From Ignavibacteriota bacterium (GTDB lineage: Bacteria; Bacteroidota; Ignavibacteria; UBA10030), in NCBI GenBank assembly GCA_963727825.1, contig CAVSHO010000011.1, positions 192,001 through 256,000 of the forward strand: DNA of 64,000 bases, given 5' to 3'. The position numbers and the translations under genes are program-made. Within the stretch, counting starts at the first letter, position 1; the number at the start of each line of letters is the position of its first letter. Positions 1 to 63,309 of this stretch are shown here, piece by piece. The notes below the pieces were generated by a model that did no database searches, was not told where the DNA came from, and saw only the letters and a list, made by a program, of their open reading frames with translations.

Positions 1-3000
1 TGTTCCGTTATTTGTGAAACTTCCTGCAATACCAACAACCGCAGTCGTATTCTCCGTTAATGCACCGCCGTTATTAATAATAACATCCGAACCAAATGAA
101 AGCGTGGCAGCAGCACTCTCAGTGATAGCGCCGCCGTTATTGATTGTTACAGCGCCGATGAAGGTCTGAGTGTTTGTTGCAGCTGTAGATATCGCCAGCG
201 TACCACCTGTTCCGCCACCTACAGTAGTTGTGCCCATTACAGTAAGTGCATATGTAGCGTTAGATGTAAATGTCGTTCCATCTCCTATCGAAAGATTGCC
301 GCCGATGGTAGTTGCAATACCTGTACTGGTATTCGTACTTCCACTTGTACTAAGGTTATTAAACGTTGTACTTGCCGAACCACCGATGACCTGAGTTGTT
401 CCATTGAAAGTAACAGTGCCAGTAGCGGGTGTAAATGTGCCTCCATTGTTCGTCCAGCTACCGCTTACGATAAGAGTATTTGTCGTGCTGTTGGTAAGCG
501 TTGCTCCAGAATTAATGACAATGGAACTTGCCGTCTGATTATTTGTATTTATTGTGATAGTGCCCGTGCTTTGAATTGTAATTTGAGTTGCTGAACTTGT
601 AGGAGCCGCTGTTGCCAGATACCAATTAATGTTGTCATGTGAGCTCTGCCAATTTGATGCGGTGCTCCAGTTTCCTGTGGCGATGGATCTGAAATAATCA
701 GTTGCCGAAGAAGTGAATGCTGGTCCTACAACAAAGTCACTAAAACTATTTAGTCCTGATACTTGGGTTGTATAAGGTCCGGAACCTGCATTTATTACGG
801 GAGTTGGAGATGTCCATACCGACGCAGTATATTTACCGACAATAAAACCAGTATTATTACTACCTCCAATAATATCACCTGCATTATAAGTGAACGTCGG
901 AGAATAAGTAGTAAAAACAATGCCAGAATTAGTTAAAGTCCAATACAAGCCAACATCTTTTGAACCATCTACCGGTGAGCCGGTATTAGGTTCTTGTCCG
1001 GAAGTAACGTTGGCAGTGAGGTTTCCTCCAGTCGTGACCGATGCAAAATTAACACTAACAGGAGTATAGCTTGAGGATGTTCCCACATCAAAAGTATAAT
1101 TATTAGCTCCTGTAGCAATTGCTCTTTGCAGGTTGCCTACTATCTGCCCGCTTGTCCGAGATACAGCGTTGGCTGCACTATTTGTGACAATAAGTGTGTA
1201 AGATCCCGTAGCAATATTCCCCGAGTTTAACTTGAGGTTATTACTTACCGTTGTTGCTGCCCCAAGTGTCCCTATTTGTGTTGACTTGTCTATCGTAAGG
1301 TTATAATATGTTGTACCATTTATTGTCTGCCCTCCGGTTGTGCTGTTGTAATCTGCCGTATTGCCTGTCGCAGTCGCCGTCAGTGTAGTCGATCCAACCG
1401 TTGCTGCACCTATATTAAGAATCGCATTTGCAGCTTGCACAAAAGTACCGGTACCTGCCCATGTGGTGGTAATATTTAATCCCCCTGCAGCAGTAATGTT
1501 ATTAGTGAGACCCGTTCCCGTGCTGCTGACAGTTATATTGGTAAAGGTGGTCGCGTTTCCATTTATGGATTGTGAAGCGCCTAAAAATGTATAAGTACCT
1601 GTACCTGAATTAAATGTTCCTGTATTGGTAAAATTGCCTGTACTAATTGTCACCGGTTCATTCACCGTATTATTATTCCATGTTCCACCGTTTATATTTA
1701 AACTGCTTACTGTTATCAGAGGTGTTGCTTGAGCCGTGGTGATATTTACAACTCCTCCGGTATTTACAGTTACAGCACCCATTGACCTTGTTCCGGTAGC
1801 ATTATTAAAAGTTAATGTGCCCGTTACAGAAGTGGTCCCTGTTACAGTTAAACTTGTTGCAAAACTGCCAACGAACAATGTACCGCCGCTGACAACAATA
1901 TTACCGCTTACTGAAGTAGTAGTGGTTGTATTGCTGAATACGACTCCGGACGCATTGCTATTATTAAACTCAAGATTACCAAATGTATTAGTTGCGCCAC
2001 CGATAGTTTGAGCATTTGAACTACTCATTAAAATTTTTCCTGCACCTGAATGAGTAGCGTTATTCATTACATTACCATTTACTGTAATTGCATATCCGCC
2101 ATCGGCGAATGTTTCACCGGCTGTCGCTATGGTCAAATTACCTGCAACCGTAATCGCACTTGTTACCGTCTTTGTTCCTGAGGCGCCCGTGATTGTTAAA
2201 TGACCATAGGTCGAAGGACCTACACTTGTAACGCTACCTGCAACATTTTGTGCATTGGTGATTGTGTTATAATTTACCGTTGAAGTTGGATTCAAAGTAA
2301 TATGAGCAGTAGTAAAGTTTGTTGGGAACGAAGTTATTGTTGCGGTGCCTGCGCCGATCTGCAAGGTCGCTCCGGCGGCAACACTCAAAGTTCCTGTTGC
2401 GTTTCCAGTTATCTGGAAGCCGCCATCGGCAAGTGTGCCGTTATTAATAGTAAGGTTACCACTCACTGTGAAAGCTCCGCCCAAAGTAGCCGTATTTGAA
2501 GATTTATCAACTGTAAGATTGAAATAAGGATTGGTTGTAGGCACTTTTATTGTTTGAGCTGCCGTACCCGTGTAGGTAACCAAGTTTGCACTGGTGGCAG
2601 GAATTATAGTTCCGGTTATACTCGTATTTGCCAAAGAAAAACTACCACCGGATGCATTAGTAATAGAACTAGCTCCTGCAATGGCTGATGTCCCTGTTGA
2701 ATTCAATGTTCCATTATTAGTTAATGCAGCATTTATAGTAAATGTACCAGATACATTTACCGTAGTACTGGCATTAATAGCTGTAGCGCCCCCAATAGTT
2801 AGTAATCCAAATGATAATGGATTACCCCCTAAAGTTTTAGTCGCACCATTCAGTGAAGTGGTTCCTGTGGAAGCAGAAAGATCGAAAGATGTTCCATTGT
2901 TGGTTATATTTCCACCGAAGTTAATAGCTGCTGCAACAGCAGTCGCATTAAATGTACCACCACTGATTATAGTTACATCACCGGTAAAAGTTTTTGAACC

Positions 3001-4400
3001 GGTTGCATTGTTTATTGACAAGGTACCGGTTACAGAAGTAGTCCCCGTTACAGTTAAACTTGTTGCAAAACTGCCAACGAACAATGTACCGCCGCTGACA
3101 ACAATATTACCGCTTACTGAAGTAGTAGTGGTTGTATTGCTGAATACAACTCCGGATGCATTGCTATTATTAAATTCAAGATTACCAAATGTATTAGTTG
3201 CGCCACCGATAGTTTGAGCATTTGAACTACTCATTAAAATTTTTCCTGCACCTGAATGAGTAGCGTTATTCATTACATTACCATTTACTGTAATTGCATA
3301 TCCGCCATCGGCGAATGTTTCACCGGCTGTCGCTATAGTCAAATTACCTGCAACCGTAATCGCCTGAAGCCGCTGTTTTTGTGCCTGAGCCCTTGAATGG
3401 TAAGATTTCCATAGGTCGATGGACCGGCACTTGTAACGTTTCCAGCAACATTTTGTCCATTGTGATCGTAGAATTATAATATTACCGTTGAAGTAGCGAC
3501 TAAAGTAATATGAGCAGTAGTATAAAGTTTGTTGGGAACGAAGTTCTTGTTGCGGTGCCTGCGCCGATCTGCAAGGTAGCTCCGTTGGCAACACCCAAAG
3601 TTCCTGTTGCGTTTCCAGTTATCTGAGAATCCGCCATCGGCAAGTGTGCCGTTGAGCACCGATAAATTATTACTCACCGTTGTTGCCGCGCTTAATGTGA
3701 CACCAGCGCTGTTGTTGATCGTAAGATTAAGTGGTGTAGTTGATGTTAATCCATTTCCGGTTACTTGGGCTGCTGTACCATTGTAAATGTAATTTGCTCC
3801 TGCAGTATATGTTCTTGTAGTAGTCTGAATATTACCTGTAGCTCCTGCTGTTGAAATACCGGCTGTTGAACCAACTTGAAGTGTAGCGGTTGCTGCATTG
3901 ATAAACACACCAGCGCCACTTATAATCCCGGCTGGTGGCATAACAAGTGTACCATTGTTAGTAAAAGTATTTGCAGCATTTCCTTCCGTAACAGTTCCAT
4001 TGACAGTCCCTGTAGCTGTCGCTGCGAGTGTAATATTCGGCCTAGTACCATTTGTGTTATTCAATGTGAAGGTCTTTGAAGCAGCTACACTGAATGTTGT
4101 GCTGATAGTAATAGTATTCCCATTTGCAGAAGCTGCAAAAGTACAGGTTCCGTTAATAGTCAGACTATTTAAAGTTATCGTTGGTACTGCTGTAATATTG
4201 CCCGTTTGATCGGCGGGAATAATTACATCATCACCCGTAGTTGGTACCGTGCCACCCCAATTGGCCGCTGTAGTCCATGCACCGCCTGTTGTCGGACTCC
4301 AGGTTCTAGTTGCTGCCATTACCGTTGCGCCAATGAACACAACCATCACCAACAGAACGTTCAGTGCATGCGATATATGATATTTCTTTTTCATTACCAA
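1..4400 (-). CDS. Giant Thr/Gly/Asn-rich secreted repeat protein (beta-helix/adhesin-like, possibly T9SS cargo); C-terminus runs off the window; several apparent indels at ~3364-3630
   Basis: ORF 3474..4400 has a signal peptide (MKKKYHISHALNVLLVMVVFIGATVMA) then TWSPTTGGAWTTAANW. Minus-strand segments I translated by hand between ~3360 and base 1 continue the same style (GNLTINNGTLADGGFQITGN; DYFRSIATGNWSTASNWQSS). Long V/P/L-rich antisense ORFs are the expected shadow of such a gene. Confidence 0.8.
1823..2157. repeat. Intragenic direct repeat, copy A (335 bp core; similarity extends to ~2442)
   Basis: Matches 3029..3363 at an offset of 1206 bp (402 codons), with about 6 mismatches counted by eye. 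Confidence 0.95.
3029..3363. repeat. Intragenic direct repeat, copy B (similarity extends to ~3653)
   Basis: Matches 1823..2157. Shadow ORFs 1736..2011 and 2594..3217 share an identical C-terminal peptide. Confidence 0.95.
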
Positions 4401-5880: not shown

Positions 5881-7260
5881 TTGAGCGCAGAACGAATCTA
5901 TATTGTTGATGATGAAATAACAATTGCCAAGCTGCTTGAATTGTGGGTCGGGCATCGATGGGGGTACTCTGTTGAGGTTTTCCATAATGGAAAAGATTTT
6001 TTAGATCGCATAGTAGAGCCTCCTGACCTTGTATTGTTGGACATTATGCTGCCAGATATAAGTGGTATTGATTTATTGAAAGAGTTCAAGCGACGCTATC
6101 CCGAGCTGCCTGTTATCATGCTTTCTGCGCAGGAAAGTATCGAGGTGGCGGTTAATACTCTTAAACTAGGAGCCGCCGACTATTTTAGTAAACCAATTGA
6201 CATGCCGAAGCTGGAACTTGCAATAAAAAATTCTCTCAAACTTGCAGCATTATCCCGTGAAGTTGAGAATTTGCATGAAAGCGTCGGAACACGTTTGCAT
6301 TTCGACAATATAGTTTCACAGAGCGGGGAAATGCAAGATGTGTTTAAACTCGTGAACAAGGTAATGCACATCGATATTTGTGTTCTCATATTAGGCGAAA
6401 GTGGCACAGGCAAAGAGCTCGTAGCTCGTGCAATTCATTATAACAGCGACCGCCGAAGTGGTCCATTTGTAGTCGTGAATTGCGCTTCAATTCCTCACGA
6501 CTTATTAGAAAGCGAACTCTTCGGGCATGAGAAGGGTTCATTTACCGGCGCAATTCAGCGGCGAATTGGAAAATTTGAGCAGGCGAATGGAGGTACAATA
6601 TTTTTAGATGAGATCGGCGAACTTGATCAAAGCCTGCAATCAAAAATACTCCGTGTTATCCAGGAAAAACAATTTGATCGAGTAGGAGGAAGTGAGACAA
6701 TCACAACCGATGCACGACTTATTTTTGCTACACACCGCGATCTTTGGGAAGAAGTGAAACAGAAGAATTTCCGCGAAGATTTATACTTCCGTATTTCGAC
6801 ATTTCCGATTATGCTTCCTCCTCTCCGCCAGCGGAAATCGGATATTCTTTTGCTTGCAGACCATTTTATAAAAAAACTTGGGGAGGAACTCGGGAAGCCA
6901 AATATTCAATTTTCACGCAAAGCTCTCGACTTGCTCTACAACTATCCATGGCCAGGCAACGTGCGCGAATTAGAAAATGTAATTCAACGCGGTTTGGTCT
7001 TGACAGACGGACAGATATTTAGCGAGCGAGAATTACCGATCTTTATTCAGTCTTATGGTTCTGCTGAAACAGACATCAAACAAAATTCAATCTTCCAAGA
7101 GAGCCAGGATTCAATCATTTCATTCGAGAAAATTAAAGAAACCGCTATCCGACAAGCTTTGAAAAATACAAACGGGAATATAGCAGAAGCTGCAAAGAAA
7201 TTAAAAATCGGCCGTGCTACTCTTTATCGGCTCGTAGAAAAATACAAAATTCAAATTTGA
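5881..7260 (+). CDS. Sigma54-dependent response regulator (REC-AAA+-Fis HTH, NtrC family)
   Basis: Receiver motifs VDDE and LLDIMLP, Walker A GESGTGKE, ESELFGHEKGSFTGA, FLDEIGE, WPGNVREL, HTH IGRATLYR. Confidence 0.95.
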   Translation: MSAERIYIVDDEITIAKLLELWVGHRWGYSVEVFHNGKDFLDRIVEPPDLVLLDIMLPDISGIDLLKEFKRRYPELPVIMLSAQESIEVAVNTLKLGAADYFSKPIDMPKLELAIKNSLKLAALSREVENLHESVGTRLHFDNIVSQSGEMQDVFKLVNKVMHIDICVLILGESGTGKELVARAIHYNSDRRSGPFVVVNCASIPHDLLESELFGHEKGSFTGAIQRRIGKFEQANGGTIFLDEIGELDQSLQSKILRVIQEKQFDRVGGSETITTDARLIFATHRDLWEEVKQKNFREDLYFRISTFPIMLPPLRQRKSDILLLADHFIKKLGEELGKPNIQFSRKALDLLYNYPWPGNVRELENVIQRGLVLTDGQIFSERELPIFIQSYGSAETDIKQNSIFQESQDSIISFEKIKETAIRQALKNTNGNIAEAAKKLKIGRATLYRLVEKYKIQI

Positions 7261-7575
7261 TAAATATCCTTTTAGCTGATCTTTAATTATCCTTACTCCC
7301 GCTTGCGTTCTAATTTATTGTTGTGAATTCCCTACCCGTCGCATGCTTACTGTTTTCACAAAGCGATTTCTATACAACTTATTAATTTCACTACAAGTTT
7401 TTAGGTATTAAATCGAAATGGAATAGATCCAATTTGTGTTATTTGCCAACTTTATGAGAAATAGTGATTCTATTTATACGTTCAAAATAAAACCCCGACT
7501 ATTTTTATCAGCCGAGGTTATTAAATGAAATTGTATAATCTTAATTAATCTGTACTAACATAGGAATACAAAGAA

Positions 7576-9034
7576 TTACGCAATATATGTTGATGATGAT
7601 GTATCACCACCGCGTCCCGTCCAGTTAGTATGAAAGAATTCTCCACGGGGTTTATCAATGTGCTCATAAGTATGAGCACCGAAGTAATCGCGCTGGGCTT
7701 GCAATAGATTTGCAGGAAGCCGCTTTTGGCGATAGCCATCGTAAAATGCCAACGAAGAACTCATAGATGGCATAGGAATTCCAATTTGAGCCGCTGTCGC
7801 AACAATCTTCCGCCAAGATTCCTGGCAGCTCGTCATTACCTTTTTGAAGTACGGATCGAGAAGAAGATTTGTGAGGTTTGGATTCTTGTCATAAGCATTT
7901 TTAATTTTTCCAAGGAATGTACTACGAATAATACATCCGCCGCGCCAAAGAAGGGCGATACCTCCATAATTAAGATCCCAATTATATTCCTTGGCAGCTT
8001 CCTTCATTAACATATATCCTTGCGCATATGAAGTTAGCTTAGAGGCATACATTGCCTTTCGGATATCTTCAATAAATTTCTTCTTATTGCCAATGATTTT
8101 ATTCTTTTTAGGCCCTTTCAAAATCTTTGAAGCGATGATGCGTTCATCTTTAATAGCAGAGAGACAACGCGCAAAGACAGCTTCTGAAACCATGGTCATG
8201 GGAATGCCAAGATCAAGAGCTGCAACACTTGTCCATTTGCCTGTTCCTTTTTGACCAGCACTATCGAGAATAGAATCGACGACATATTTATTCTTTTCAT
8301 CTTTATAGTTGAGAATGTCTCGAGTGATTTCGATAAGATAGGACTTCAATTCGCCCTCGTTCCACTCTTTAAAAACCTCATACATTTCTTTATTGCTCAT
8401 GCCCAGACCATCTTTCATCATCTGATAACATTCACAAATAAGTTGCATATCACCATACTCAATACCGTTGTGAACCATCTTTACAAAATGACCGGCTCCA
8501 TCGTTTCCAACCCAATCGCAACAAGGTGTACCATCTTCAACTTTTGCAGCGATCGCTTGAAAAATGGGCTTTACAGATGGCCAGGCCGCTGCCGAACCGC
8601 CAGGCATAATGGACGGGCCTTTTAACGCACCTTCTTCACCTCCGGAAACACCGGTGCCAATAAACAATAATCCCTTACTTTCTAAGTACTTTGTTCTTCT
8701 TATGGTATCGGGAAAATGTGAATTACCGCCGTCGATAATTATATCACCGGGCTCAAGGAAAGGAATTAACTTATCAATGAATTCATCGACTGCTTTGCCC
8801 GCTTTCACCATAAGCATTGCTTTGCGCGGACGTTTCAACGATGCTACAAATGCTTGTATTGAATGCGTACCAATGAATTTTTTTCCGGCGCCGCGTCCCT
8901 GAATAAATTTATCCACCTTCTCTATCGTACGATTAAACACTGAAACAGTGAAACCACGGCTTTCGACGTTGAGCACGAGATTCTCACCCATTACCGCTAA
9001 ACCGATTAATCCGAAATCCGCTTTTATGTTCCAT
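7576..9034 (-). CDS. gnd: 6-phosphogluconate dehydrogenase, decarboxylating (apparent 1-bp insertion near the start)
   Basis: GHFVKMVHNGIEYGDMQ, QAQRDYFGAHTY. The N-terminal ADFGLIGLAVMG lies upstream of the called start, and ATG 9034 is one base out of frame. Confidence 0.95.
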
Positions 9035-9088
9035 TTTTGTTCGTCCTCTATTATTTATGAAACTATTATTTCGATTTCCTCGAATTAA

Positions 9089-10357
9089 TTAAATCGATCT
9101 CCGATACGCCCACAGACCAAGTGCGGGATTTGAAATATAAAAAATCTTTTCTCCATCCGGCATCGTATTAAAACCGTCTTTCAATTTTTCCGGATTGTAT
9201 TTTTTTATCATTTCATCAAGATCTGCATATTTGAAATTGACATTCTCAATTTCCTGCTTCGTTAGATGACCCGGACAATAAGTAATGGAGAACCGATCTT
9301 CAGAAGATCCATGAATCAAATGTGCAGCTGCACCGAGATTGTTTTTCAGATCATCAGAAGTTCTAACGAGTTCTAATACTTTGGTGTGCCAACATAGCCA
9401 TATTTACGAATGAGGACATCGATTTGCTTATCTTCTCCAAATTCTTTCAGTGCAGGAGCCACCACAATAAGCTCTCCGCGATCTGCTATGGCCATACGAG
9501 TTCGATAGATACTCTTGTTGCCAAGCCATGTGCTTTTAAATTCTGAAGGATCCAAAAAAACAATAACTTTCTTCAATGGCTCTTCGACCATTTGGAAATT
9601 CACCTTGAGCGATAACGCAGCTGCAAGATTGAAGCATTCTATATCATCTCCAATATAGAGACCACGAACTTTCAACTGCCCATCTGCCCCAGCCGATACT
9701 ACTGTCTGAATATAAATGATTGGCAGGTGCTTTGCAAAATGATCTGAGGCATAATTATAGACACGCCGGACAGGATTGTCCGCACGTCCCATGATGCGCT
9801 CCATTCCATAAACAGCGCCGAGAAAATGACTTTTATTGATACCTTCTGGTCCACCGGTTCCCACAAGAATATTTTTGTTGTAATTTGCCATACCGATAAC
9901 TTCGTGAGGAACCACCTGGCCAAGCGATAATATCAGATCAAAATTCCCTTCTACAAGAAGTTTATTAACCTGCGCCTTCCATGCGTAATCCAACTTGCCT
10001 TCAGATTGTTGATAAATAAAATCAGAAGGGACTTCACCCAATGTGACGACATCTTTCCGCCAATCGTGCACTCGAAAAAGATTCAAAGGAGTATTGCCGA
10101 ACATCGTCTTAATATCTTTTTCGGTCATGGCAGTATGCGTACCAAGCGCTGGAAGAATATCGGTAAGTTTTTCTTTGTAATATTCCCAAGTGAGTCGTGT
10201 CAGTACGCCCGCATGCGAATGAAATCGAGTAAAATCAGGCGGAATGGCTAAAACTTTTTTCTTCTCACCTAATTTTTCAAATGCTTCAACAAGACCTGTT
10301 TCTTAGATCTTCTTCATCGAGAACATCATTTTCAGAACCGCGCTTATAAAGGAGCAT
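9089..10357 (-). CDS. LarA-family (lactate racemase/DUF2088 domain) nickel-pincer racemase/epimerase, probably a sugar-acid 2-epimerase; split by apparent indels at ~10300 and ~9375
   Basis: Reconstructed N-terminus MLLYKRGSENDVL...KKVLAIPPDFTRFHS...ILPALGTH, then VVPHEVIG, YNKN and NKSH motifs typical of LarA homologues. The pieces are ORFs 9373..10128 and 9089..9319. Confidence 0.75.
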
Positions 10358-10391
10358 AAAGCAATATCCTTTTTACCATCTACTTATAAAA

Positions 10392-10432
10392 CAGAGGAAC
10401 GCCATTGTTAGTTCACCAATGACGTTTCTTCT
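10392..10432 (-). terminator. Intra-operonic hairpin between the kinase and the LarA-family gene
   Basis: Minus strand GAAGAAACGTCATTG-GTGAACTAA-CAATGGCGTTCCTCT followed by GTTTT. Confidence 0.45.
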
Positions 10433-10449
10433 CTATTCTCCAGTAATAA

Positions 10450-11529
10450 TTAACGCTGAATTCGAGCCGATCCGCCTTTAGCAAATGCTTTCACTTGATC
10501 AAGAGTTACCATAGTTGTATCACCTGGAGTCGTCGTCAACATTGCTCCATGAGCCCAGCCAAGATTGACTGCTTCTTGCGGTTGTTCACCTGATAATAGA
10601 CCATAGAAAAATCCAGCAGCATAACCATCGCCACCACCCACACGATCGAAAACATCCAATTCAGCAGTCGGAGATTGATAGGTTTTTCCATCAACCCATG
10701 CTACCGCTGCCCAGCTATGACGATTTGTGGAATGTACTTCACGTAAAGTAGTTGCGACTGCTTTCACATTAGGATGTTTCTTCACAACGAGGTCAATCAT
10801 TTTAAAGAATGCAGTTGGGTCGAGGTTGGACTTTGATTCTACGTCTTGACCTTGAATGCCTAATCCCTTTTGCAGATCTTCTTCATTACCGACAAGCACA
10901 TCAACATTTTCTACAATCTTTGCGATAACTTCAGCTGCTTTTTTTTCACCGCCCCAAATATTCCAGAGTTTAGCACGGAAATTCAGATCGAAACTCGTAA
11001 CAGCGCCAGCTTTCTTAGCCGCCTTCATTCCCTCGATAATAACCTGGCCGGTGGATTCGGAAAGGGCAGCAAAAATTCCACCACTGTGGAACCAGCGTAC
11101 GCCTCCAGTAAAAATTTCGTCCCAATTAAAATCACCTGGCTTCAGCAAAGAACCGGCTTCGTTTGAGCGATTATAAAATACAACAGGCGGACGCACACTA
11201 TGGCCTTGATCGCTGTACACGGTCGCCATATTGGGACCGTTCACACCATTATGTCTAAACTTTTTATAAAACGGTTTTACACCCATCGCACGCACACGCT
11301 CGTTGATTAGATCTCCTATTGGATAATCAACCATTGCCGACACGATAGCTGTTTTCATTCCAAAGCAATCAGATAAGTTTGCAGCAACATTGAACTCGCC
11401 GCCGCTGACATGAATTTTACATTCTGATGCTTTCCGGAAAGGAATAATGCCAGGATCCAACCGATGCACCAAAGCACCGAGAGAAACCAAATCTAACGCA
11501 CCATCTTTCTTTACATTCAATCCACTCAT
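10450..11529 (-). CDS. PfkB-family sugar-acid kinase (KDG/gluconate kinase-like)
   Basis: SGGEFNVA, SFDLNFRAKLW, GNEED, DRVGGGDGYAAG anion-hole motif. Confidence 0.85.
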   Translation of the reverse strand: MSGLNVKKDGALDLVSLGALVHRLDPGIIPFRKASECKIHVSGGEFNVAANLSDCFGMKTAIVSAMVDYPIGDLINERVRAMGVKPFYKKFRHNGVNGPNMATVYSDQGHSVRPPVVFYNRSNEAGSLLKPGDFNWDEIFTGGVRWFHSGGIFAALSESTGQVIIEGMKAAKKAGAVTSFDLNFRAKLWNIWGGEKKAAEVIAKIVENVDVLVGNEEDLQKGLGIQGQDVESKSNLDPTAFFKMIDLVVKKHPNVKAVATTLREVHSTNRHSWAAVAWVDGKTYQSPTAELDVFDRVGGGDGYAAGFFYGLLSGEQPQEAVNLGWAHGAMLTTTPGDTTMVTLDQVKAFAKGGSARIQR

Positions 11530-11559
11530 TATTTGCTCCTTTATCTCTTATTCAAGTCT

Positions 11560-12408
11560 CTATACGCCTGCATACGCCGAGAAACCACCATCAATTGGCA
11601 GAATTATGCCGGTGACAAATTTCGATGCCGGCGACAAGAGCCACAACATTCCGCCTAACAAGTCATCAGGTACGCCAAAACGTCCCGCTGGCGTATGATC
11701 CAGGATTTTCTTGCCGCGTGCGGTCAATTCGCCTGTTGCTTTATCAGTTAATAAAAAACGATTTTGTTCTGTGAGAAAGAAACCTGGAGCGATAGCATTC
11801 ACGCGGATATTCGGTGTATATTCCTGAGCAATATGGACAGCCAGCCATTGCGTAAAATTACTGATGGCAGCTTTTGCTGCAGAGTATGCAGGGATTCGCG
11901 TTAATGGACGGAAAGCATTCATGGAAGAAACATTTAAAATAATACCTTCCTCCTGTGCAACCATAGCTTTCCCAAAGACTTGGCTGGGAATAATTGCTCC
12001 AAGTAAATTGAGATTAGCAACAAACTGAATTGCTTCAGATGGAATATCAAAGAATGACATCTCTGCACTGGTCGTTGCCTTTGGATTATTTCCACCAGCA
12101 CCGTTGATCAGAATATCTACTTTTCCATATTCTGCAAATGTTTTATCGGCAGCTTCTTGCACCTTTACTTTATCAAGCACATCAATAAAAATCGCTTTAT
12201 GCTTACCTATAGTACCGCTTAAAGACTTAAGCGTTTTTTCACCAAGCGACATCTCCCGATCGAGAATAACGACATTCGCATTGCATCCAGCAAGACAGCG
12301 TGCCATTTCGCTGCAGAGTACACCTCCGCCACCGGTGATTGCAACAGTCTTTCCTGTAAAATCATAAGCTTTTGTTAATTCCTGCGAATTCATTGTTATT
12401 CCTTTCAA
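11560..12408 (-). CDS. SDR-family D-mannonate oxidoreductase (fructuronate reductase, UxuB-like)
   Basis: TGGGGVL, INGAGGN, SSMNAFRPLTRIPAYSAAKA, NAIAPGFFLTEQNR are typical of the SDR-type mannonate oxidoreductases. Confidence 0.8.
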   Translation of the reverse strand: MKGITMNSQELTKAYDFTGKTVAITGGGGVLCSEMARCLAGCNANVVILDREMSLGEKTLKSLSGTIGKHKAIFIDVLDKVKVQEAADKTFAEYGKVDILINGAGGNNPKATTSAEMSFFDIPSEAIQFVANLNLLGAIIPSQVFGKAMVAQEEGIILNVSSMNAFRPLTRIPAYSAAKAAISNFTQWLAVHIAQEYTPNIRVNAIAPGFFLTEQNRFLLTDKATGELTARGKKILDHTPAGRFGVPDDLLGGMLWLLSPASKFVTGIILPIDGGFSAYAGV

Positions 12409-12461
12409 TTAAAATTTCATTTGGCTCTTTTTCAATAATCGAATCGCTATAAGTTTAAATA

Positions 12462-13817
12462 TCATAAATCAGTGATTGGTTTATGTCGTGGAACCAGTAT
12501 TTTCATGAAACCCCATGCAGTCACATACGATAACGCACAAACAACGAACATAATCATATATGCTGTCTGTGGTGTTCCAATATAAAAATCTGTTAATCTA
12601 CCCGCTAATAATTGAATAACAACACCACCTATTCCACCTGCCATTGTACCAATACCAGTAATAGAAGCTACAGCTTTTTTAGGGAACATATCAGATACGG
12701 TTGTAAATAAATTAGCAGACCATGCTTGATGGGCAGCCGCACCTATGCAAATGATTGCCACGGCTAAATACATTGCCATTCCGCCAAAATGTTCTACATT
12801 GCCAAAATACTGTGTCAATAAAACAATAAGTGGAAACAGGGCAATTATTATCATAGTAGTCATTCGTGCCTTATAGATATGCATTCCTTTATTCATAAAT
12901 ATCATAGGAATACCGCCGCCGTATACGCTTCCAATAATTGAAATTCCATAGACAATAAAAGTAGGCCACTTTACTTCTGCCGGAGTCATTCCAAACTGTT
13001 TGATCAGATAATCCGGCAGCCAAAACAAATAGAACCACCAAACACCATCGGTAAGAAATTTGCCGAAAAAGAAAGACCATGTCTGGCGATAACTGAATAG
13101 CCTTCCCCATGGAACATGGGTACTGTCTTCTACTAATTTATCTGTTCCCTCGTCCGATGAATGGATATATTCGTACTCAGGTTTTAATAACTTTTTATGT
13201 TTTGAAGGAATTTCGTATAGCCAAAACCAGAAAATTAGCCATAAAAGTCCTATTGCACCTGTAACTATAAATGATATTTTCCAGCCAGCTTGATCGCCGT
13301 AAGTTACCATAATCCATGGTATTAACAATGCTGCAATCATAGCACCCATATTTGACCCGCTGTTAAAAATACCAAATGCAAGCGCTCGTTCTTTTTTGGG
13401 AAACCATTCAGCGACGGTTTTATTAGAAGCAGGGAAATTACCTGCCTCACCAACCGCGAATATACTCCTAATAAATACATGCACTGCAATAGTGGCACCC
13501 GCAAAAGCATTAGCTATACCTGCGAACGACCAAACTATCAAGGACCAAGCTAATCCAAGCTTTGTTCCTATTTTATCAATTAATCGACCTGCCCCAATCG
13601 TCATTCCGGCGTAAAAAGCCGTAAAGAATGCCGTAAGGTATGAAAAATCTGTATTGGTCCATCCGAAACCACCCGACTCAACCGATTTACAATAGAACGG
13701 TTTTAAATAACTGATTACCTGACGATCCATATAATTGATAGTCGTTGCAAAAAACAAAAGTGCACAGATCACCCACCGATAATTGCCAATTTTCATCTTC
13801 ATATCATCTGTCATCAT
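12462..13817 (-). CDS. MFS hexuronate transporter (ExuT-like)
   Basis: RWVICALLFFATTINYMDRQ, GEAGNFPA, AEWFPKKERA, WWFYLFWLP, AHQAWSANLFT. Confidence 0.85.
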   Translation of the reverse strand: MMTDDMKMKIGNYRWVICALLFFATTINYMDRQVISYLKPFYCKSVESGGFGWTNTDFSYLTAFFTAFYAGMTIGAGRLIDKIGTKLGLAWSLIVWSFAGIANAFAGATIAVHVFIRSIFAVGEAGNFPASNKTVAEWFPKKERALAFGIFNSGSNMGAMIAALLIPWIMVTYGDQAGWKISFIVTGAIGLLWLIFWFWLYEIPSKHKKLLKPEYEYIHSSDEGTDKLVEDSTHVPWGRLFSYRQTWSFFFGKFLTDGVWWFYLFWLPDYLIKQFGMTPAEVKWPTFIVYGISIIGSVYGGGIPMIFMNKGMHIYKARMTTMIIIALFPLIVLLTQYFGNVEHFGGMAMYLAVAIICIGAAAHQAWSANLFTTVSDMFPKKAVASITGIGTMAGGIGGVVIQLLAGRLTDFYIGTPQTAYMIMFVVCALSYVTAWGFMKILVPRHKPITDL

Positions 13818-14104
13818 TTTGTCCTTTTTAAATTCATTTGATTTATTATGAAAGTAGCTGATTTGCTTATTTGAATGCTAAAAATTTTTAGTTCTTTTTT
13901 TTCTGTGTTTGTTAATATAGTATAGATTTCTTGATTTTTCCAGAATTCTAATACTTTATATCCAAATATTTCCCTTCACTTTGTTTTCTATTAAACTAAA
14001 ACATGATCCTTATTGCTCGGTTTGCATTTACTTTGCTTTTACTGTATTTTTCCAATGTTATGTAAATAATTATATTCAATCAGTATCATACATACAAACC
14101 ATCA

Positions 14105-15457
14105 ATGACACGAACCTTTTTTCTTCTATCAATACTTTTCTATACAATATCTTTCAGTCAGTTTGGAGAAGATATGCATAGATCATCTCTAAGCTTTTTT
14201 AATCCAATTACCTTCGAAGCTGTTCCATATTGGAGTGAGGACACAACATCTATCGAACTTGCAGTTTTTTACCGGATTAATCCAGATATATTCTTTTTTG
14301 CTAAAACATACGCTGGACAGAACGAGGCATATGAGGCAAAGGGTGAATTAGTATTTGAAGTTTTTGATGAAAAAGATGTTGCCATTACACATAACTTTCG
14401 GCCTTTAAGGATCGAACGAAATTCGCTTCCAGCAGAAGGTGTTTCATTTTCAGAAGAATTACAAGGAACGCTTACATTTAAATTGAAAAAAGGATTGTAT
14501 AAAATTTTTGTAGAGACAAAAGACAGCGAATCCGGTAAATTATTTATTAATCGCGATACGAAAATTGATGCTCGAGCTTTTTCTTCCGATTTAAACTCAT
14601 CCCCTGCGATTTTTGTTGAGCCGATATCACTCGATACTTCTATAAACAATCGACTAACTTTCTTTCCGATTAATCGTGGAGGCAATGTTATTATAGGTCA
14701 AGCTGGAGGGTGTCTGATTCAGGTTATATCACCGGACACGAAAACGGCTATCCATCTCTCGTGGAAAGTGAACAGTAAAAACGAAAGTGATGAAAATATT
14801 CCGCAAGAATTACACGGTGAAAAATACATTCAGCAAAGCGGCATGCCTGTTATAATGGAGAATTCAAATCGCAATTCAATTACCACAAAAAGGGATTCGG
14901 AACGCAGCCGATTAATCTTTATTCCTTTTGCAATTGAACGATTAGAGACAGGCAAATATCAAATGACCGTAAAGATAACACAAGGATCGTTAAAGTTGAC
15001 AAAGGATTTCTTTTTCAACATTATCTGGCCATCGAAACCACATTCTCTCTCAGACTTTAAGCTGGCTGTCGAGGCGGTACGCTACATTGCGACAGAAGGA
15101 GAAATTGATAGTATGACGGCTTTCAGTTCCAGTAAATCGATGAATGCTTTCAGAACATTCTGGTACAAGCACAATCCGGATACAACGCGTGCTTTTAATC
15201 CTGCTATGGCAGAGTATTATCGCAGAGTCGATGAAACGATCAAGCGATTTTCTTCGGCTAACGAAATGGATGGCTATAGAACAGATCGTGGACGAATTTA
15301 TATTTTATTCGGTTCACCATCCATCGCAAATCGTTTGTTGAAACCTAATTCCGCGCCTACAGAAATTTGGACCTACGAAAAGCTTAAAAAAAGATTTACT
15401 TTTACAGACGAGAAGAAAACAGGAAACTATGTTTTAATTAAAATGGAGAAATATTGA
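14105..15457 (+). CDS. GWxTD domain-containing secreted protein
   Basis: Signal peptide; C-terminal EYYRRV...GYRTDRGRIYILFGSP...EIWTY (variant of the GWxTD motif). Confidence 0.8.
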   Translation: MTRTFFLLSILFYTISFSQFGEDMHRSSLSFFNPITFEAVPYWSEDTTSIELAVFYRINPDIFFFAKTYAGQNEAYEAKGELVFEVFDEKDVAITHNFRPLRIERNSLPAEGVSFSEELQGTLTFKLKKGLYKIFVETKDSESGKLFINRDTKIDARAFSSDLNSSPAIFVEPISLDTSINNRLTFFPINRGGNVIIGQAGGCLIQVISPDTKTAIHLSWKVNSKNESDENIPQELHGEKYIQQSGMPVIMENSNRNSITTKRDSERSRLIFIPFAIERLETGKYQMTVKITQGSLKLTKDFFFNIIWPSKPHSLSDFKLAVEAVRYIATEGEIDSMTAFSSSKSMNAFRTFWYKHNPDTTRAFNPAMAEYYRRVDETIKRFSSANEMDGYRTDRGRIYILFGSPSIANRLLKPNSAPTEIWTYEKLKKRFTFTDEKKTGNYVLIKMEKY

Positions 15458-42495: not shown

Positions 42496-43323
42496 TCAAG
42501 CCGATTTGCGAGCCACAATCTCAGGATTGAATATAATTTTTTTAGGGGTACGAAGTATCTCGTTTCTTTGGTTCACAACCATATTGTATGCTGCTTTAGC
42601 CATCTCCTCCAAAGGTTGATTAACAGTAGTAAGTGTTGGTGTCGTAAGCCGTGCAATAGGTAAGTCGTCAAAGCCCACAATAGCAACATCATTGGGTATC
42701 CGCACTACGCGTTCGTTGGCTACGGTCAGCAAACCTTGTGCGCAGTTATCACCAGCTGCGCAAAAAATGGCATCCACGCTCTTTGCCAACAACCTTGACA
42801 TTACTTCAATTCCATTTTCGCGAGAGCAATTCAACACCTCAATCGCACACCCTTCCGGTATCGAAAGCCCTTTAGCTTTTAATGCATATTCAAACCCCTT
42901 GAATCTTAGTTCTGCATTGCAACTACCCTTAACCTTAGATCTGCCAGAAACAATTGCTATCTTCTTCCTACCTTTACTAATTAGATACTCCCCGGCAATA
43001 AGTCCTCCTTTATAGTTATCTATTGCGATAGTGGACACACCGTCCATTTCTTCGTTAAATAGAACTATAGGGACACTCGTAGCATTGTAGACCGAGATAG
43101 TATTGGAATCCGGCTGTATATCCATAGCGATTAGTGCAGTAGGTTTGTTTTGTTCGAGTATTTTCTTCAGGCACTCTACCTGTTTATCTGCATCGTCTGT
43201 TGCCGACCGCAATGCAATCTCTTCTGGTGTGAAGAACTTCCTGAGGTTTCGGACTATTGAAATTCGTAATGCCGATCCAAATGTTGGTGCTACAATTACA
43301 ACTTTTATTTCTTGGTTTGTCAT
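42496..43323 (-). CDS. LacI/GalR-type sugar-binding domain lacking the N-terminal HTH
   Basis: IDNYKGG..AGEYLISKGRKKIA, RFKGF, DAIFCA, IPNDVAIVGFDD, PTLTTVNQP. No HTH or signal peptide seen upstream. Confidence 0.8.
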   Translation of the reverse strand: MTNQEIKVVIVAPTFGSALRISIVRNLRKFFTPEEIALRSATDDADKQVECLKKILEQNKPTALIAMDIQPDSNTISVYNATSVPIVLFNEEMDGVSTIAIDNYKGGLIAGEYLISKGRKKIAIVSGRSKVKGSCNAELRFKGFEYALKAKGLSIPEGCAIEVLNCSRENGIEVMSRLLAKSVDAIFCAAGDNCAQGLLTVANERVVRIPNDVAIVGFDDLPIARLTTPTLTTVNQPLEEMAKAAYNMVVNQRNEILRTPKKIIFNPEIVARKSA

Positions 43324-43773
43324 CTTGAAATTCTTTTAACAACTATTAGACACAATATATTTTTTACTCTCTTACCGATTCTTCAGTGTCCAGATTTCTG
43401 ACCTCTTTGTTGGAATACCATTCTATTTTGATGTGATAAATCAGCATGTGACGTCGATGTCATCACAATTTATTAGTAAAAGGAATGCAAAAAAATGTTC
43501 CGACAACCTCTACTTCTCAAGAATCCGTAACAATGAATTAATTGTTGCTTATCATTTCGACAAACAGCCCTACTACTCTTGCAGTAAAATATCTGTTGCA
43601 AAACGAAAATATTACAACGCTATAATTTACACTGTAAATTTCTAATTGAGATTCTTTGAAGTGTTCCCCTGGTAAAAAGATAGAGCCCTGGTAAGCACTT
43701 CTTTAACCATATAAACCCTACACTTTATTTGTTTGAATTTCAAGTGGTAAAAATCGGCAATCTTCGCATCCCT

Positions 43774-55425: not shown

Positions 55426-57555
55426 TTATTGCTTTCCCTGGATTTGATATGTCAAGGTTGCCGAAGCTCTAAGACGGATAGATTGATTAGTTGTTATTAC
55501 CACCGGTACTGACCCGTTATTGCTCGTGCTAAGCGCAAAATTTATTGCCACTGAATCGGATGAATTAAATTTCCGCACTTGAGCCGTATCCAACACGATA
55601 CTGATATATGACGTCATTGGACTTGTAACTACACCAGAGGCATTGACATTAGCAGGAAGGAATGTCGAATCTGGAACTATCGTCAGCGTTGTATCTGAAT
55701 GGCGAGTAAGATTATTCCACGTTAAAAATTTTATACCGAATTTTACACCTAACGGTATCCCATTCGTCGCGGTAATATTCATCCTTGCGTTCACCATTTT
55801 ATTCGTAAAGTCTTGATTATTATTTTCTTCGCTCATTGCAAGAACATCTTTATACGAGCCGCTTTGTATCCCAAGTTGACTCGGGAATGTCAGAGCAACA
55901 TCCGGATATACTTTTGATGTATCATCCACAGTATATGCCTGACCGGAAACAGATACATCTGCTGGGCTGAGAACAACGGTTCCTTGCAGAGACATGAAAT
56001 CAGGTAAATTCGGGAAACTAAAGAAATGCGAAAGAAACGTATTAAATCCTGGTGCGCTTGATAAATTAATTTCAGAAGTCGTTCCGCCTGGAGTGATCCT
56101 GAACTGTCCAGCAGAATTTGCAGGAATTCCTAAAGTATCTACTATGCCGTTTGAAGAATTTTTCGTGATGAGTTTTAAATTATAATCCATCGGGAATCCG
56201 CCGCCGGTAATCGGTAGACGCAATATAATAGAGACGCCCTGGAAATTTAACGTCGCACTTAATTTATTTTTAATATCCTGCAACCCGGGAAAGTTTGTAT
56301 TGATTCCTTGATTCACAAGAATAGTCTGTGGCTTGATTCTTCCCGTTACAGATTTTAGTATGAAAGTATCTCCCGGTCGGATTTCAGCACGAACAAAATC
56401 ATTTTTAGTGATTACCTTTTTATCAACACCTGAATTTATTGTTTTGATACCGACAGAATAAACAAGGTTCGTTCCCTGTGAAGAAGGAGAGAATGTAGCC
56501 GATTGAACTTGATAGTTGGTGGAATTAAAAATGATTGGTACAACTACACTATCCTGACTTTTCAATGTTGTATCAATTCTCAAAGTATCCCCATTTGTGA
56601 TCTTCCTAATATCATTTACTTTGAGAAATACCCCTACTTGAACATTTGAGCGGTTAATGAGAGCAAAATTAAATGACCCTTGACGAAATTGTGCATTTTG
56701 AATAGCAATTGTATCGTCCAATGTGATCGATGTATCATTAATCGACGCTACAGTTTGTGTAGGTATTACTGCATTCGCACTATCTGCTGTAAGATTCGAC
56801 GATTGAAACGAAATTGATACTCCACTTGATGATGTAAAAGTTACGGGATTAAGTGAACCAGATGTATGCATTTGAATGGGGTCAGTTGTTAAGGAGCCAC
56901 GTAATAACTTTCCATCTATAACTGCGGGAACTGGAAGGGTTACGCCAGGATTAATTGCACCCGAAATAGAAAACGAGGCAATTACCGAATTATCAACTGG
57001 GTTCGTCCAATTATTATGAAGTACAATCGGAGCAGGAAAATCAATTGGAACCGGCATGTTGTTAGTGATGGAAAGTGTTAACGTTCCAGATGCTATTTTT
57101 ACGTAATCGAATGTTGAATCACTAATCGATACAGCAGGAATGGGAAATGAACTTGCCGGTAATGCGGGTAATGTACCATTTAAACTGGGAGAGATTGTTG
57201 TTGCAAGGATTGTGGAGTTCTTAGAAAATCCATTTACTGTAAATTGTCCAACACCGACTTGCTGTGAAGAGAATTTCGGTTGCAACGATATCTGACCTAT
57301 TCCTTGCGGCGGCATCGATTGGTTATATAAATATGAAAATGTTCCATCGGGATTAAGAGTGAGTGCCGGACTTTTCTGAACCCATTCCAAAACGTAATGG
57401 GTAACATCAGCAACTGGCATGCTCAATTGGATATCCGATGACGGAGCCACAGGCTGCAAAGGCATATCAACGCAATTGAAGGAAATGAATGCAAGCAAAC
57501 ACATTGCAAATCCCACAATCATTGCCTCGGGTAAAGCTTTAACAATATTCTTCAT
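55426..57555 (-). CDS. Large hypothetical beta-rich lipoprotein
   Basis: Lipoprotein-like signal ending ..AFISFN-C; S/T/N-rich, with a repeated 'ITNNMPV / ATNGIPL' motif; 8 bp from the barrel gene. Confidence 0.65.
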   Translation of the reverse strand: MKNIVKALPEAMIVGFAMCLLAFISFNCVDMPLQPVAPSSDIQLSMPVADVTHYVLEWVQKSPALTLNPDGTFSYLYNQSMPPQGIGQISLQPKFSSQQVGVGQFTVNGFSKNSTILATTISPSLNGTLPALPASSFPIPAVSISDSTFDYVKIASGTLTLSITNNMPVPIDFPAPIVLHNNWTNPVDNSVIASFSISGAINPGVTLPVPAVIDGKLLRGSLTTDPIQMHTSGSLNPVTFTSSSGVSISFQSSNLTADSANAVIPTQTVASINDTSITLDDTIAIQNAQFRQGSFNFALINRSNVQVGVFLKVNDIRKITNGDTLRIDTTLKSQDSVVVPIIFNSTNYQVQSATFSPSSQGTNLVYSVGIKTINSGVDKKVITKNDFVRAEIRPGDTFILKSVTGRIKPQTILVNQGINTNFPGLQDIKNKLSATLNFQGVSIILRLPITGGGFPMDYNLKLITKNSSNGIVDTLGIPANSAGQFRITPGGTTSEINLSSAPGFNTFLSHFFSFPNLPDFMSLQGTVVLSPADVSVSGQAYTVDDTSKVYPDVALTFPSQLGIQSGSYKDVLAMSEENNNQDFTNKMVNARMNITATNGIPLGVKFGIKFLTWNNLTRHSDTTLTIVPDSTFLPANVNASGVVTSPMTSYISIVLDTAQVRKFNSSDSVAINFALSTSNNGSVPVVITTNQSIRLRASATLTYQIQGKQ

Positions 57556-57684
57556 AATACTTCCCTCAGTTTATAAATGAATATTACTATATTCAGTTTA
57601 ATATACCGACTGCTTAAAGAATTGTCAAGAAAATGCCTCAAAGCATTTGTCTTATGATGATTTATATGTCTATAGTCACAAATA

Positions 57685-62030: not shown

Positions 62031-63233
62031 TTATTGAGATAATTTCATCATAGCAGAGGCGGCTAAAAGTACAGGCCCAAAGGCATGAGAATCGTTTTCC
62101 GGCGCAGGACGAGAATAATAAAACTGAAAATCATTTCCAATAGGCGTCCCTGCGCATGTTCCAAGGATGTGACCTTCAGATGTTACACGCGATGCAACTC
62201 CCAGCCATCCTTTTTTTGCAAATGTCGTAAATGTTGTATCTAGCCAGCCGTTCTGAATGCCGCTTGCAATACTGTAAACGAACATTGCCGAGCATGATGT
62301 TTCAAGATACGAGTCCCGTCGATCCAATACCTGATGCCAGAGACCGGTCAATGAATCCTGACAAGCAACAAGCCCTTGAATATGAGATTGAACACATTGA
62401 ATTACCTTATCGCGACCCGAATAATGATCAGGTATTTGTTTCAGCAATTCCGTAGCAGCAACGAGCATCCATCCATTCACTCTTCCCCAGCACGCAATTG
62501 TTTGTTGCGCGGAATCTGTATAATAACCGTGACGCATGATTTTCTTCTGTGGATCGGACAGCAAATGATAAAACTCCAGTACCTGATGAACGGCATCGCT
62601 ATAATATACGGTATCGTGTGTTAAGGCTGCCATACGTGCAAGAAACGGGACGCTCATATACAGATCGTCTCCCCAAACTGTCATATTCCTAGGTCCGGTT
62701 CTGCATAAAGTACCGTCAGCGAGTCGAGTTTGTTTTGTATGAATGTAGTTTGCAATCGTATCGATCGTTTCATGCCATTGTTTGTTTCCTGTCAGGCGAT
62801 ACGCCTCGATGAGGGCAACCCCCATTGCTCCGCAGTCATCTAAAGATTCCATGCGGTGCAATCTATATTCTGTCCCTTCTTTTTCCGAATGAAACTGGTT
62901 CCACATATTTTTAAAATATTCTTTGTCCCGAAAAAGAAAATCAAAACTTCGAATTGAATATTTGCTTTCTCCGCAAGCTATCATGCCGTAAAGCATTACA
63001 CCATTAGGGTAATTCCAATCGTTGAACGAACTGGCAAATTGGACATTCGTATCAACCGCTGAAGGATCGAGTTTTGTTATGACGTTTTTCGCTTGTCTAT
63101 CCATAATCTGGTTCTTCGTTTCCGATTGAATGAAGGAAGCGATACGTTCTGCAACGTCGTGCGGCGACTGCTGTGAGAAAACTAAAGAAGAAAATAATAC
63201 ACAACACACAGATGCACTAAAAAGTACGTTCAT
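62031..63233 (-). CDS. Secreted GH105/GH88-type unsaturated uronyl hydrolase
   Basis: Signal peptide, WNYPNG, LDDCGAMG, WGDDLYM, WGRVNGW, GLWHQVLD..SYLETSCSAMF. Confidence 0.88.
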   Translation of the reverse strand: MNVLFSASVCCVLFSSLVFSQQSPHDVAERIASFIQSETKNQIMDRQAKNVITKLDPSAVDTNVQFASSFNDWNYPNGVMLYGMIACGESKYSIRSFDFLFRDKEYFKNMWNQFHSEKEGTEYRLHRMESLDDCGAMGVALIEAYRLTGNKQWHETIDTIANYIHTKQTRLADGTLCRTGPRNMTVWGDDLYMSVPFLARMAALTHDTVYYSDAVHQVLEFYHLLSDPQKKIMRHGYYTDSAQQTIACWGRVNGWMLVAATELLKQIPDHYSGRDKVIQCVQSHIQGLVACQDSLTGLWHQVLDRRDSYLETSCSAMFVYSIASGIQNGWLDTTFTTFAKKGWLGVASRVTSEGHILGTCAGTPIGNDFQFYYSRPAPENDSHAFGPVLLAASAMMKLSQ

Positions 63234-63309
63234 TTTTATTTCATCCTATAAGCTTTTCTTTCATGTAATAAAAATGGAACTTTAAAAGCATTGCAGAAGC
63301 ACGAAATTT

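Follow-up and report, generated by a model that had tools for sequence, protein, structure and literature searches.

What becomes of mannonate in a bacterium that appears to form it from hexuronates and in whose genome no mannonate dehydratase (UxuA) is found? The question is raised by five co-oriented genes on the minus strand, at positions 7576–13817 of a 64,000-nucleotide stretch of DNA (hereafter the window) from an Ignavibacteriota bacterium (GenBank assembly GCA_963727825.1, contig CAVSHO010000011.1, positions 192,001 to 256,000). They code for a major facilitator superfamily (MFS) transporter, a UxuB-type short-chain dehydrogenase/reductase (SDR), a PfkB kinase, a homolog of LarA and the 6-phosphogluconate dehydrogenase Gnd; neither uxuA nor eda lies within 7576–13817. 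We consider it probable that the cluster specifies a hexuronate shunt of the LarAH18 type (LarAH group 18), leading from the isomerase pathway's upper portion into the pentose phosphate pathway, and that the indels in larAH18 and gnd are assembly errors.

In the proposed route the MFS transporter would import uronates. UxaC would turn glucuronate into fructuronate; galacturonate would pass through tagaturonate, from which a UxaE-like epimerase would also produce fructuronate. The SDR would then form D-mannonate. LarAH18 would invert C2 and the PfkB kinase would phosphorylate C6, in either order, the joint product being 6-phosphogluconate, which Gnd would convert to ribulose-5-phosphate, CO2 and NADPH. 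The sugar acids of pectin and glucuronan would thereby reach the pentose phosphate pathway without net use of redox cofactors, a matter of relevance to carbon cycling in peat, soil and sediment as well as to the engineering of pectin-using microbes.

The concept has a history. As cited by Valk 2020, Rodionova 2012 proposed that mannonate is converted via gluconate to 6-phosphogluconate through gntE and gntK, with homologs in Lactobacillus, Acidobacterium and Terriglobus. Extracts of L. suebicus were found to work kinase-first, via 6-phosphomannonate, and the genes are left unassigned (Valk 2020). Desguin 2020 reported that GntE1 (group 19) and GntE2 (group 20, PDB 4NAR) act as 2-epimerases, and hypothesized a hexonate substrate for group 18. 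Table S1 of the same paper lists, as the genomic context of 25 group 18 sequences, an SDR (36%), gnd (32%), a ribokinase-family kinase (16%), and an MFS transporter, UxaC and KduI (12% each). A 2024 paper in the Journal of Biological Chemistry deals with eukaryotic GntE, and its available part holds nothing on group 18. Our literature search uncovered neither an account of this route from Ignavibacteria nor one of a mannonate or gluconate kinase of the PfkB type; on mannonate kinase and 6-phosphomannonate it gave nothing beyond Valk 2020. The first-pass annotation of the window, made from the sequence alone, had supposed the route to be undescribed for this lineage; this went too far, the concept being credited to Rodionova 2012, the gene context standing in Table S1 of Desguin 2020 and the family being named in NCBIfam.

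The LarA homolog

NF052594, the NCBIfam model "nickel-dependent putative hexonate epimerase", is equivalent to LarAH group 18 of Desguin 2020. In the assembly the gene is spread over three frames (10357–10304, 10302–9373 and 9403–9089). The middle piece alone scores 504.1–505.5 bits against the model (cut-off 500; profile positions 14–319), and the C-terminal piece scores 147.4 bits (profile positions 317–410).

The protein matches GntE2 (4NAR) with E = 1e-29 (106.8 bits). Using the active-site numbering of Desguin 2020, the catalytic residues (Asp, two His and Lys) all align with 4NAR and 2YJG, as do the Arg, Lys and His that bind the cofactor. The aligned motifs are DFTR (the D and R of DxTR), GTH, PHE with the loop EV, NK, SH and W..K; K and H match GntE2 K164 and H180, and W...K matches W283 and K287. 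Groups 18–20 share a signature of a loop E-V/S after the catalytic His, a Trp in helix 11 and A or V in helix 14 (Desguin 2020). Of these, the window protein shows the EV loop and the Trp; the helix-14 position falls in its third fragment.

LarAH18, the sole LarA homolog in the genome, belongs to group 18, the putative hexonate 2-epimerases, and is not GntE itself. An assignment to GntE proper (LarAH19/LarAH20) was considered and rejected; group 18 is a sister group, and Thermotoga maritima falls under the NF052594 cut-off. The first-pass annotation had pointed to a GntE-type enzyme, of which the LarA superfamily membership and the alignment of residues with GntE2 stand, and the placement within the GntE groups 19 and 20 does not.

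Gene layout of the operon

The profile matches bear out the five co-oriented genes and the lack of uxuA and eda among them that had been read from the sequence at first pass (Table 1). Intergenic gaps along the operon are 68, 30, 92 and 54 nt. The transporter scores 197.9 bits against TIGR00893, the galactonate/hexuronate-type anion:cation symporter family, which is under the cut-off of 395, and its substrate is presumably a hexuronate or hexonate. A homolog with 49% identity occupies the matching position in the operon of a genome of the same genus (G099). The SDR belongs to its family by score (Table 1) and is predicted to reduce fructuronate to D-mannonate; TTG at 12408 is its earliest possible start, and ATG at 12393 is the likely one. 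The top named models for the kinase are of the 2-keto-3-deoxygluconate (KDG) kinase types, none of which reaches its cut-off. For gnd, the TIGR00873 match begins at profile position 10 and the ATG lies in the other of the two frames over which the gene is spread; the true ATG is at 9034 and not at 8991.

The terminator-like hairpin lies 57 nt past the gnd stop codon and is the probable end of the operon. An Rfam search of 7000–14500 returned no family at E <= 0.1, and sigma-70-like promoter matches were no more numerous than in shuffled controls (17 versus a mean of 20.1).

Table 1. Positions in the window of the operon genes, the putative terminator and the three indel sites.
Feature	Position	Strand	Evidence or remark
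MFS transporter, anion:cation symporter type (ExuT/DgoT-like)	12462-13817	-	Operon gene 1; PF07690, 166.1 bits
UxuB-type SDR (fructuronate reductase / D-mannonate oxidoreductase)	11560-12393	-	NF006132 "D-mannonate oxidoreductase", 362.2 bits (cut-off 281)
PfkB-family sugar-acid kinase	10450-11529	-	PF00294, 63.6 bits
LarAH group-18 gene, putative nickel-pincer hexonate 2-epimerase	9089-10357	-	NF052594
gnd, decarboxylating 6-phosphogluconate dehydrogenase	7576-9034	-	TIGR00873, 762 bits (cut-off 426.7); single copy in genome
Terminator-like hairpin and T run	7491-7519	-	11-bp stem with 5 G-C pairs; consensus match only
Indel site 1, larAH18	10298-10303	-	One extra base in window; frame shifts after codon 18
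Indel site 2, larAH18	9382/9383	-	One base missing in window; frame shifts near profile position 318
Indel site 3, gnd	9022-9027	-	One extra base after codon 3-4

Gene content of the genome

Neither UxuA nor UxaA was found in the genome as a whole (3.12 Mb in 14 contigs, 96.8% complete). Nor does it contain a true Edd, the only match to that family being IlvD-like (262.6 bits, where the cut-off is 708), or a GntK of TIGR01313; its three FGGY kinases (XylB-like, ribulokinase and rhamnulokinase) reach at best 128.5 bits against the gluconokinase model TIGR01314 (cut-off 648.55). UxaC is encoded on contig C10, in a pectin cluster that also encodes KduI, a KduD-like SDR, GH28, GH88 and pectinesterase, and a stand-alone UxaE-like gene (191 bits) is located on contig C9. 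Because no UxuA or UxaA was found, the LarA-kinase-Gnd block is the only visible exit for mannonate, and the shunt would be its sole fate in this organism. The first-pass proposal of a path from fructuronate via mannonate and 6-phosphogluconate to ribulose-5-phosphate fits this gene content. Its further claim, that the Entner-Doudoroff route (2-keto-3-deoxy-6-phosphogluconate aldolase, Eda) is bypassed, was overstated; Eda is present elsewhere in the genome, as are KduI and the KduD-like SDR, and the window kinase, the only KdgK-like enzyme, would be the only candidate in the genome for feeding KDG from KduI/KduD to Eda.

The genes larB, larC and larE, which the first-pass annotation had named as a check on the cofactor, are all present. 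LarB (257.8 bits), LarE (285.1) and LarC (212.2) lie above their cut-offs and are without internal stops. NikR adjoins larB-larE (contig C9, L014:7095–11281), next to a TonB-dependent receptor, and this grouping suggests a nickel-regulated supply of the cofactor. An intact zwf-pgl pair is situated away from gnd.

Two other open reading frames (ORFs) of the window, both on the minus strand, may relate to uronate use. One, at 42499–43335, is of the LacI family and has the sugar-binding domain only, no helix-turn-helix domain being matched; the other, at 62034–63245, specifies a second GH88 unsaturated glucuronyl hydrolase.

Conservation and synteny

Close relatives of LarAH18, of 70–91% identity, occur in at least 595 species-level genomes, from Ignavibacteriota, Bacteroidota, Acidobacteriota, Planctomycetota, Calditrichota and other groups. 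Among the best 80 species-level loci the neighbors include the SDR (57), gnd (55), PfkB (46), UxaC (32), the UxaE-like protein (32), LacI (21), a PdxB-like protein (20), Eda (13), the MFS transporter (13) and UxuA (4). When the set was narrowed to the 61 loci in which LarAH18 is flanked on either side by two or more ORFs, the SDR and gnd were each found within four genes of it in 47, PfkB in 37 and some kinase in 42. gnd is directly downstream of LarAH18 in 24 of 78 loci. The SDR-kinase-LarAH18-gnd block is kept across several phyla, most commonly in the order SDR > PfkB > LarAH18 > gnd; in Planctomycetota loci LarAH18 precedes PfkB. The five-gene arrangement is not due to chance.

Identity between the LarAH18 proteins of different phyla, Spirochaetota included, is 70–77%. 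So high a value is unusual and points to strong constraint, to a horizontal spread of the cluster or to both. In the 20 loci with a PdxB-like 2-hydroxyacid dehydrogenase (NF001309, 451 bits, e.g. L038:5573–6727) its gene is placed between LarAH18 and gnd, often together with a Gfo/Idh/MocA oxidoreductase; this neighbor hints at phosphorylated 2-hydroxy acid intermediates.

Within the class, 151 genomes were sampled, of which 20 (this genome included) bear LarAH18. The notion that LarAH18 is a general substitute for UxuA was rejected, UxuA being present in 12 of these 20 versus 4 of the 131 genomes without LarAH18.

The PfkB kinase

A tree of 53 PfkB rows resolved three deep clades, with the window kinase in clade B, which is separate with 98/94 support. 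Six of the eight rows of clade A are adjacent to Eda. All 15 rows of clade B (the window kinase among them) and 29 of the 30 rows of clade C are adjacent to or near LarAH18. Against T. maritima 2AFB, deposited as KDG kinase (KdgK) and the best solved-structure match of the window kinase, the scores are 410.9 bits for clade A, 168.4 for clade B (the window type) and 106.1 for clade C. Seven loci contain clade A plus B or C. In 15 of the 20 LarAH18-bearing class genomes a clade-A-type or intermediate (40–43% identical) KdgK-like gene exists separately from the B or C kinase adjacent to LarAH18; four have clade B only, namely the window's genome (G000), its two genus mates and G079.

Two of these genomes are particularly informative. 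In G099 (same genus, 99% complete) the operon reads uxaC-MFS-SDR-PfkB(B)-LarAH18-gnd, and neither UxuA, Eda, KduI nor a clade-A kinase was found in that genome. In G079 LarAH18 adjoins a clade-B kinase, with gnd not in that locus, and the same four were again not found in the genome. Since no Eda, KduI or UxuA was detected in either, the kinase there is not working on KDG; G099 is the decisive case, in which the clade-B kinase cannot act on this substrate. In G000 and G107, both with Eda and KduI, the clade-B kinase may phosphorylate KDG as well.

From this context the window kinase is predicted to be a diverged KDG-kinase paralog that acts as a gluconate or mannonate 6-kinase, that is, it would be a neofunctionalized paralog of KdgK. 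Two simpler identities were rejected. It is not a KdgK ortholog, given its score (168.4 versus 410.9 bits), its separate clade and its retention where no Eda was found; and it is not a known GntK of either the SKI type (TIGR01313) or the FGGY type (TIGR01314), being PfkB-type. If it is a gluconokinase it would be non-homologous to GntK. The comparative data thus lend support to the first-pass suggestion that this "KDG kinase-like" enzyme acts as a gluconokinase: that it is no KdgK ortholog and is kept in G099 and G079 agrees with the suggestion, and what is left less certain is exclusivity, as it may also phosphorylate KDG. Two leads for comparative work follow from the survey, a KdgK-derived kinase that travels with the epimerase and a pair of genomes that keep this kinase with no KDG or KDPG (2-keto-3-deoxy-6-phosphogluconate) enzyme found in them.

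In five of the 80 loci (L025, L026, L031, L039 and L055) the PfkB gene that otherwise lies upstream of LarAH18 is replaced by one of the phosphofructokinase family (PF00365; NF010675-like, 366 bits) together with a gene for a 299-amino acid HAD-like protein, and this pair may be a non-homologous substitute kinase. A HAD-like ORF whose domain is placed in the same way adjoins eda in the window's genome (L012:8889–9815).

Frameshifts in larAH18 and gnd

Three single-base indels within 1.35 kb interrupt the two distal genes of the operon (Table 1), the third of them separating the gnd ATG from the Rossmann motif. At site 1 the extra base is missing in five aligned relatives and in a metagenome contig of 90% identity (at 10298); at site 2 five relatives have the additional base, and two metagenome contigs, one of them 97% identical, insert a base behind 9382; at site 3 the extra base is missing in five relatives and in a contig of 95% identity (at 9026). 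The larAH18 frame is intact in 80 of 80 species-level relatives and in all 19 other genomes of the class above the cut-off. Programmed frameshifting was rejected as an explanation, the sites requiring shifts in differing directions and all being absent in the relatives.

We judge the chance that the three indels are local assembly errors to be somewhat better than even. gnd is the only copy in a genome with an intact zwf-pgl pair and no Edd, and larB, larC and larE are intact. In LarAH18 there are 0 deviations in 86 invariant columns and 1 in 177 highly conserved ones, where the controls have a median of 2. Further genes are split in this assembly, namely those for GlnD, an ABC exporter and probably a TonB-dependent receptor.

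The competing explanation is that larAH18 and gnd are recent pseudogenes in this organism, which would no longer use mannonate and would have kept the kinase for KDG, the route being real in its relatives. We regard this as a serious possibility that nevertheless falls short of an even chance. The indels are confined to the two distal genes, with the genes for the transporter, the SDR and the kinase intact. About 20 other conserved genes of the 64 kb have their full length, and none of the 80 species-level relatives or the 19 other class genomes carries a broken larAH18. The 3.1 Mb contain no more than 91 candidate split pairs, and of 20 sampled 1–2 looked real, with 1 clear case and 1–2 possible ones, a rough estimate in that the filter overlooks splits with a nearby start codon by chance. 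The base inserted at site 3 is a T and that at site 1 is ambiguous; these are therefore not plain homopolymer length errors. In addition, gnd has a private Arg to His change (AHTYER to AHTYEH) at a position where 52 related Gnd sequences are all alike. This Arg, which we take to bind the phosphate of the substrate, could have been altered by a sequencing error or by a damaging mutation.

Other features speak against decay. If its single gnd were lost, a genome that has an intact zwf-pgl pair and no Edd would leave 6-phosphogluconate stranded; larB, larC and larE would have been kept intact without another client enzyme; LarAH18 shows no excess of change at conserved columns; and the other split genes are typical of indel noise. 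The first-pass annotation had counted read-confirmed frameshifts in the LarA gene against the route; the frameshifts are there in the assembly, and no read set spans the three sites to confirm them. Of the words sampled, 0.30 are shared by the best public run, whose identical contigs miss all three sites. Those metagenome contigs that do span indel sites are intact and 90–97% identical. An exact pattern across site 2 with an optional base had 0 matches in metagenome_contigs, and in a protein-guided scan of the same collection the best hit had 86% nucleotide identity, too distant a match. Genomes of the same genus show about 80–83% DNA identity or are unalignable by megablast. For annotation the matter is of consequence: unless assembly errors prove to account for the three indels, two key genes would be annotated as pseudogenes.

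Several other ORFs of the assembly, all on contig C9, have a broken appearance. GlnD, the PII uridylyltransferase (L015:11583–14235), is represented by two overlapping ORFs inside PF08335 (positions 2–59 and 69–138), a clear frameshift. The Plug and barrel parts of the TonB-dependent receptor in L014 are in overlapping frames (8048–8854 and 7095–8087), a probable one. A rhamnulokinase-like ORF (L125) is missing about the first 100 profile positions, and the overlapping PAS/response-regulator ORFs of L210:3–6832 resemble frameshifted pieces of one or two long sensor proteins. Within the window, two large ORFs on the minus strand had no Pfam or NCBIfam match at the thresholds used: 1–3618 (at least 1206 amino acids, running off the window) and 55429–57570 (714 amino acids).

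Order of epimerization and phosphorylation

The proposed shunt leaves the order of the two middle steps free. It is possible, and we hold it tentatively, that the kinase acts first, PfkB being a mannonate 6-kinase and LarAH18 a 6-phosphomannonate/6-phosphogluconate 2-epimerase, so that free gluconate would never be formed. Without ATP, mannonate was left unepimerized by extracts of L. suebicus; the extracts did make 6-phosphomannonate, which they interconverted with 6-phosphogluconate (Valk 2020). The Km for free mannonate is high in both assayed relatives, at 17 mM for GntE2 and 120 mM for GntE1 (Desguin 2020). The gene directly upstream of LarAH18 is PfkB in 25 of 78 loci, and the one directly downstream is PfkB in 4, in keeping with the commonest gene order; and the PdxB-like dehydrogenase that adjoins LarAH18 in a quarter of the 80 loci belongs, by its NCBIfam name, to a family acting on a phosphorylated 2-hydroxy acid. 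Yet GntE1 and GntE2 do use free mannonate, and group 18 has their EV loop and Trp signature, read by Desguin et al. as indicating similar substrates (Desguin 2020). Gene order is also weak evidence, the order in Planctomycetota being reversed. Of the first-pass scheme, which had gluconate as the intermediate, the combined C2 epimerization and C6 phosphorylation fits; gluconate itself is put in doubt by the kinase-first behavior of the L. suebicus extracts (Valk 2020).

A broader form of this idea is doubtful but deserves mention: LarAH18 could be the missing 6-phosphomannonate 2-epimerase, the LarAH18-linked PfkB proteins (two deep clades split from KdgK) could be mannonate 6-kinases, and the redox-neutral route could be widespread in Ignavibacteriota, Bacteroidota, Acidobacteriota and Planctomycetota of soil and sediment. 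If true, genes would be assigned to a pathway known to date only from activities of L. suebicus extracts, and a pair consisting of a PFK-family and a HAD-like protein would replace the kinase in some lineages.

Certain points weigh against the shunt in either order. The epimerase activity of group 18 is hypothetical, and the substrate of the kinase is predicted from context. UxuA co-occurs with LarAH18 in the 12 class genomes referred to above, and uxuA is inside the cluster in 4 of the 80 loci. gnd serves zwf-pgl as well, and its position is by itself no proof that it is dedicated to the route. Finally, the window kinase is the sole KdgK-like gene of its genome, though Eda, KduI and the KduD-like SDR are present, and it may have a plain KDG-kinase role there.

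Taken together as a mosaic cluster, in which the kinase would be a plain KDG kinase serving KduI/KduD and Eda, the single gnd would be a housekeeping partner of zwf-pgl and LarAH18 would act on another hexonate, with no route from mannonate to 6-phosphogluconate, these points and the match to 2AFB make an unlikely case, since G099 and G079 retain the clade-B kinase beside LarAH18 where the search for Eda, KduI, UxuA and a clade-A kinase came up empty, most LarAH18-bearing genomes of the class have a separate KdgK-like gene, mannonate from UxaC, UxaE and the SDR would come to a dead end with no UxuA found, and the SDR-kinase-LarAH18-gnd block is conserved across phyla.

Comparison with known systems

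The LarAH18 shunt that we favor shares its logic with the GntE route of T. maritima (SDR - GntE2/LarAH20 - GntK - Gnd), whose GntE2 is a D-mannonate/D-gluconate 2-epimerase in vitro, both combining a fructuronate reductase, a LarA-superfamily C2 epimerase, a kinase and Gnd, and the catalytic and cofactor residues of the epimerases align. They differ in the group of the epimerase, 18 here and 20 there, and in the kinase, which is PfkB-type here and FGGY there; in keeping with this, group 20 is accompanied by COG1070 in 86% and group 18 by COG0524 (Desguin 2020). The hybrid isomerase-phosphoketolase pathway of L. suebicus likewise leads from mannonate to 6-phosphogluconate by means of a kinase and a 2-epimerase, followed by Gnd. 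There the kinase acts first, paralogs of the FGGY GntK are the candidates for it and the product goes on to phosphoketolase (Valk 2020), whereas the window kinase is PfkB-type.

With the canonical isomerase pathway (UxaC-UxuB-UxuA-KdgK-Eda) the window's organism has in common UxaC and the fructuronate reductase step, and Eda and KduI/KduD are encoded elsewhere in its genome. In contrast to that pathway, no UxuA or UxaA was found here, the kinase is not a KdgK ortholog, and carbon would leave as CO2 and pentose phosphate rather than as pyruvate and glyceraldehyde-3-phosphate.

The closest likeness is to LarAH group 18 as described by Desguin 2020. The window protein is above the family cut-off, and its neighbors, an SDR, gnd, a ribokinase-family kinase and an MFS transporter, are those of Table S1; there is no difference in kind, the window copy being frameshifted twice in the assembly. 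The window is a further instance of a published, enzymatically hypothetical variant of the pathway.

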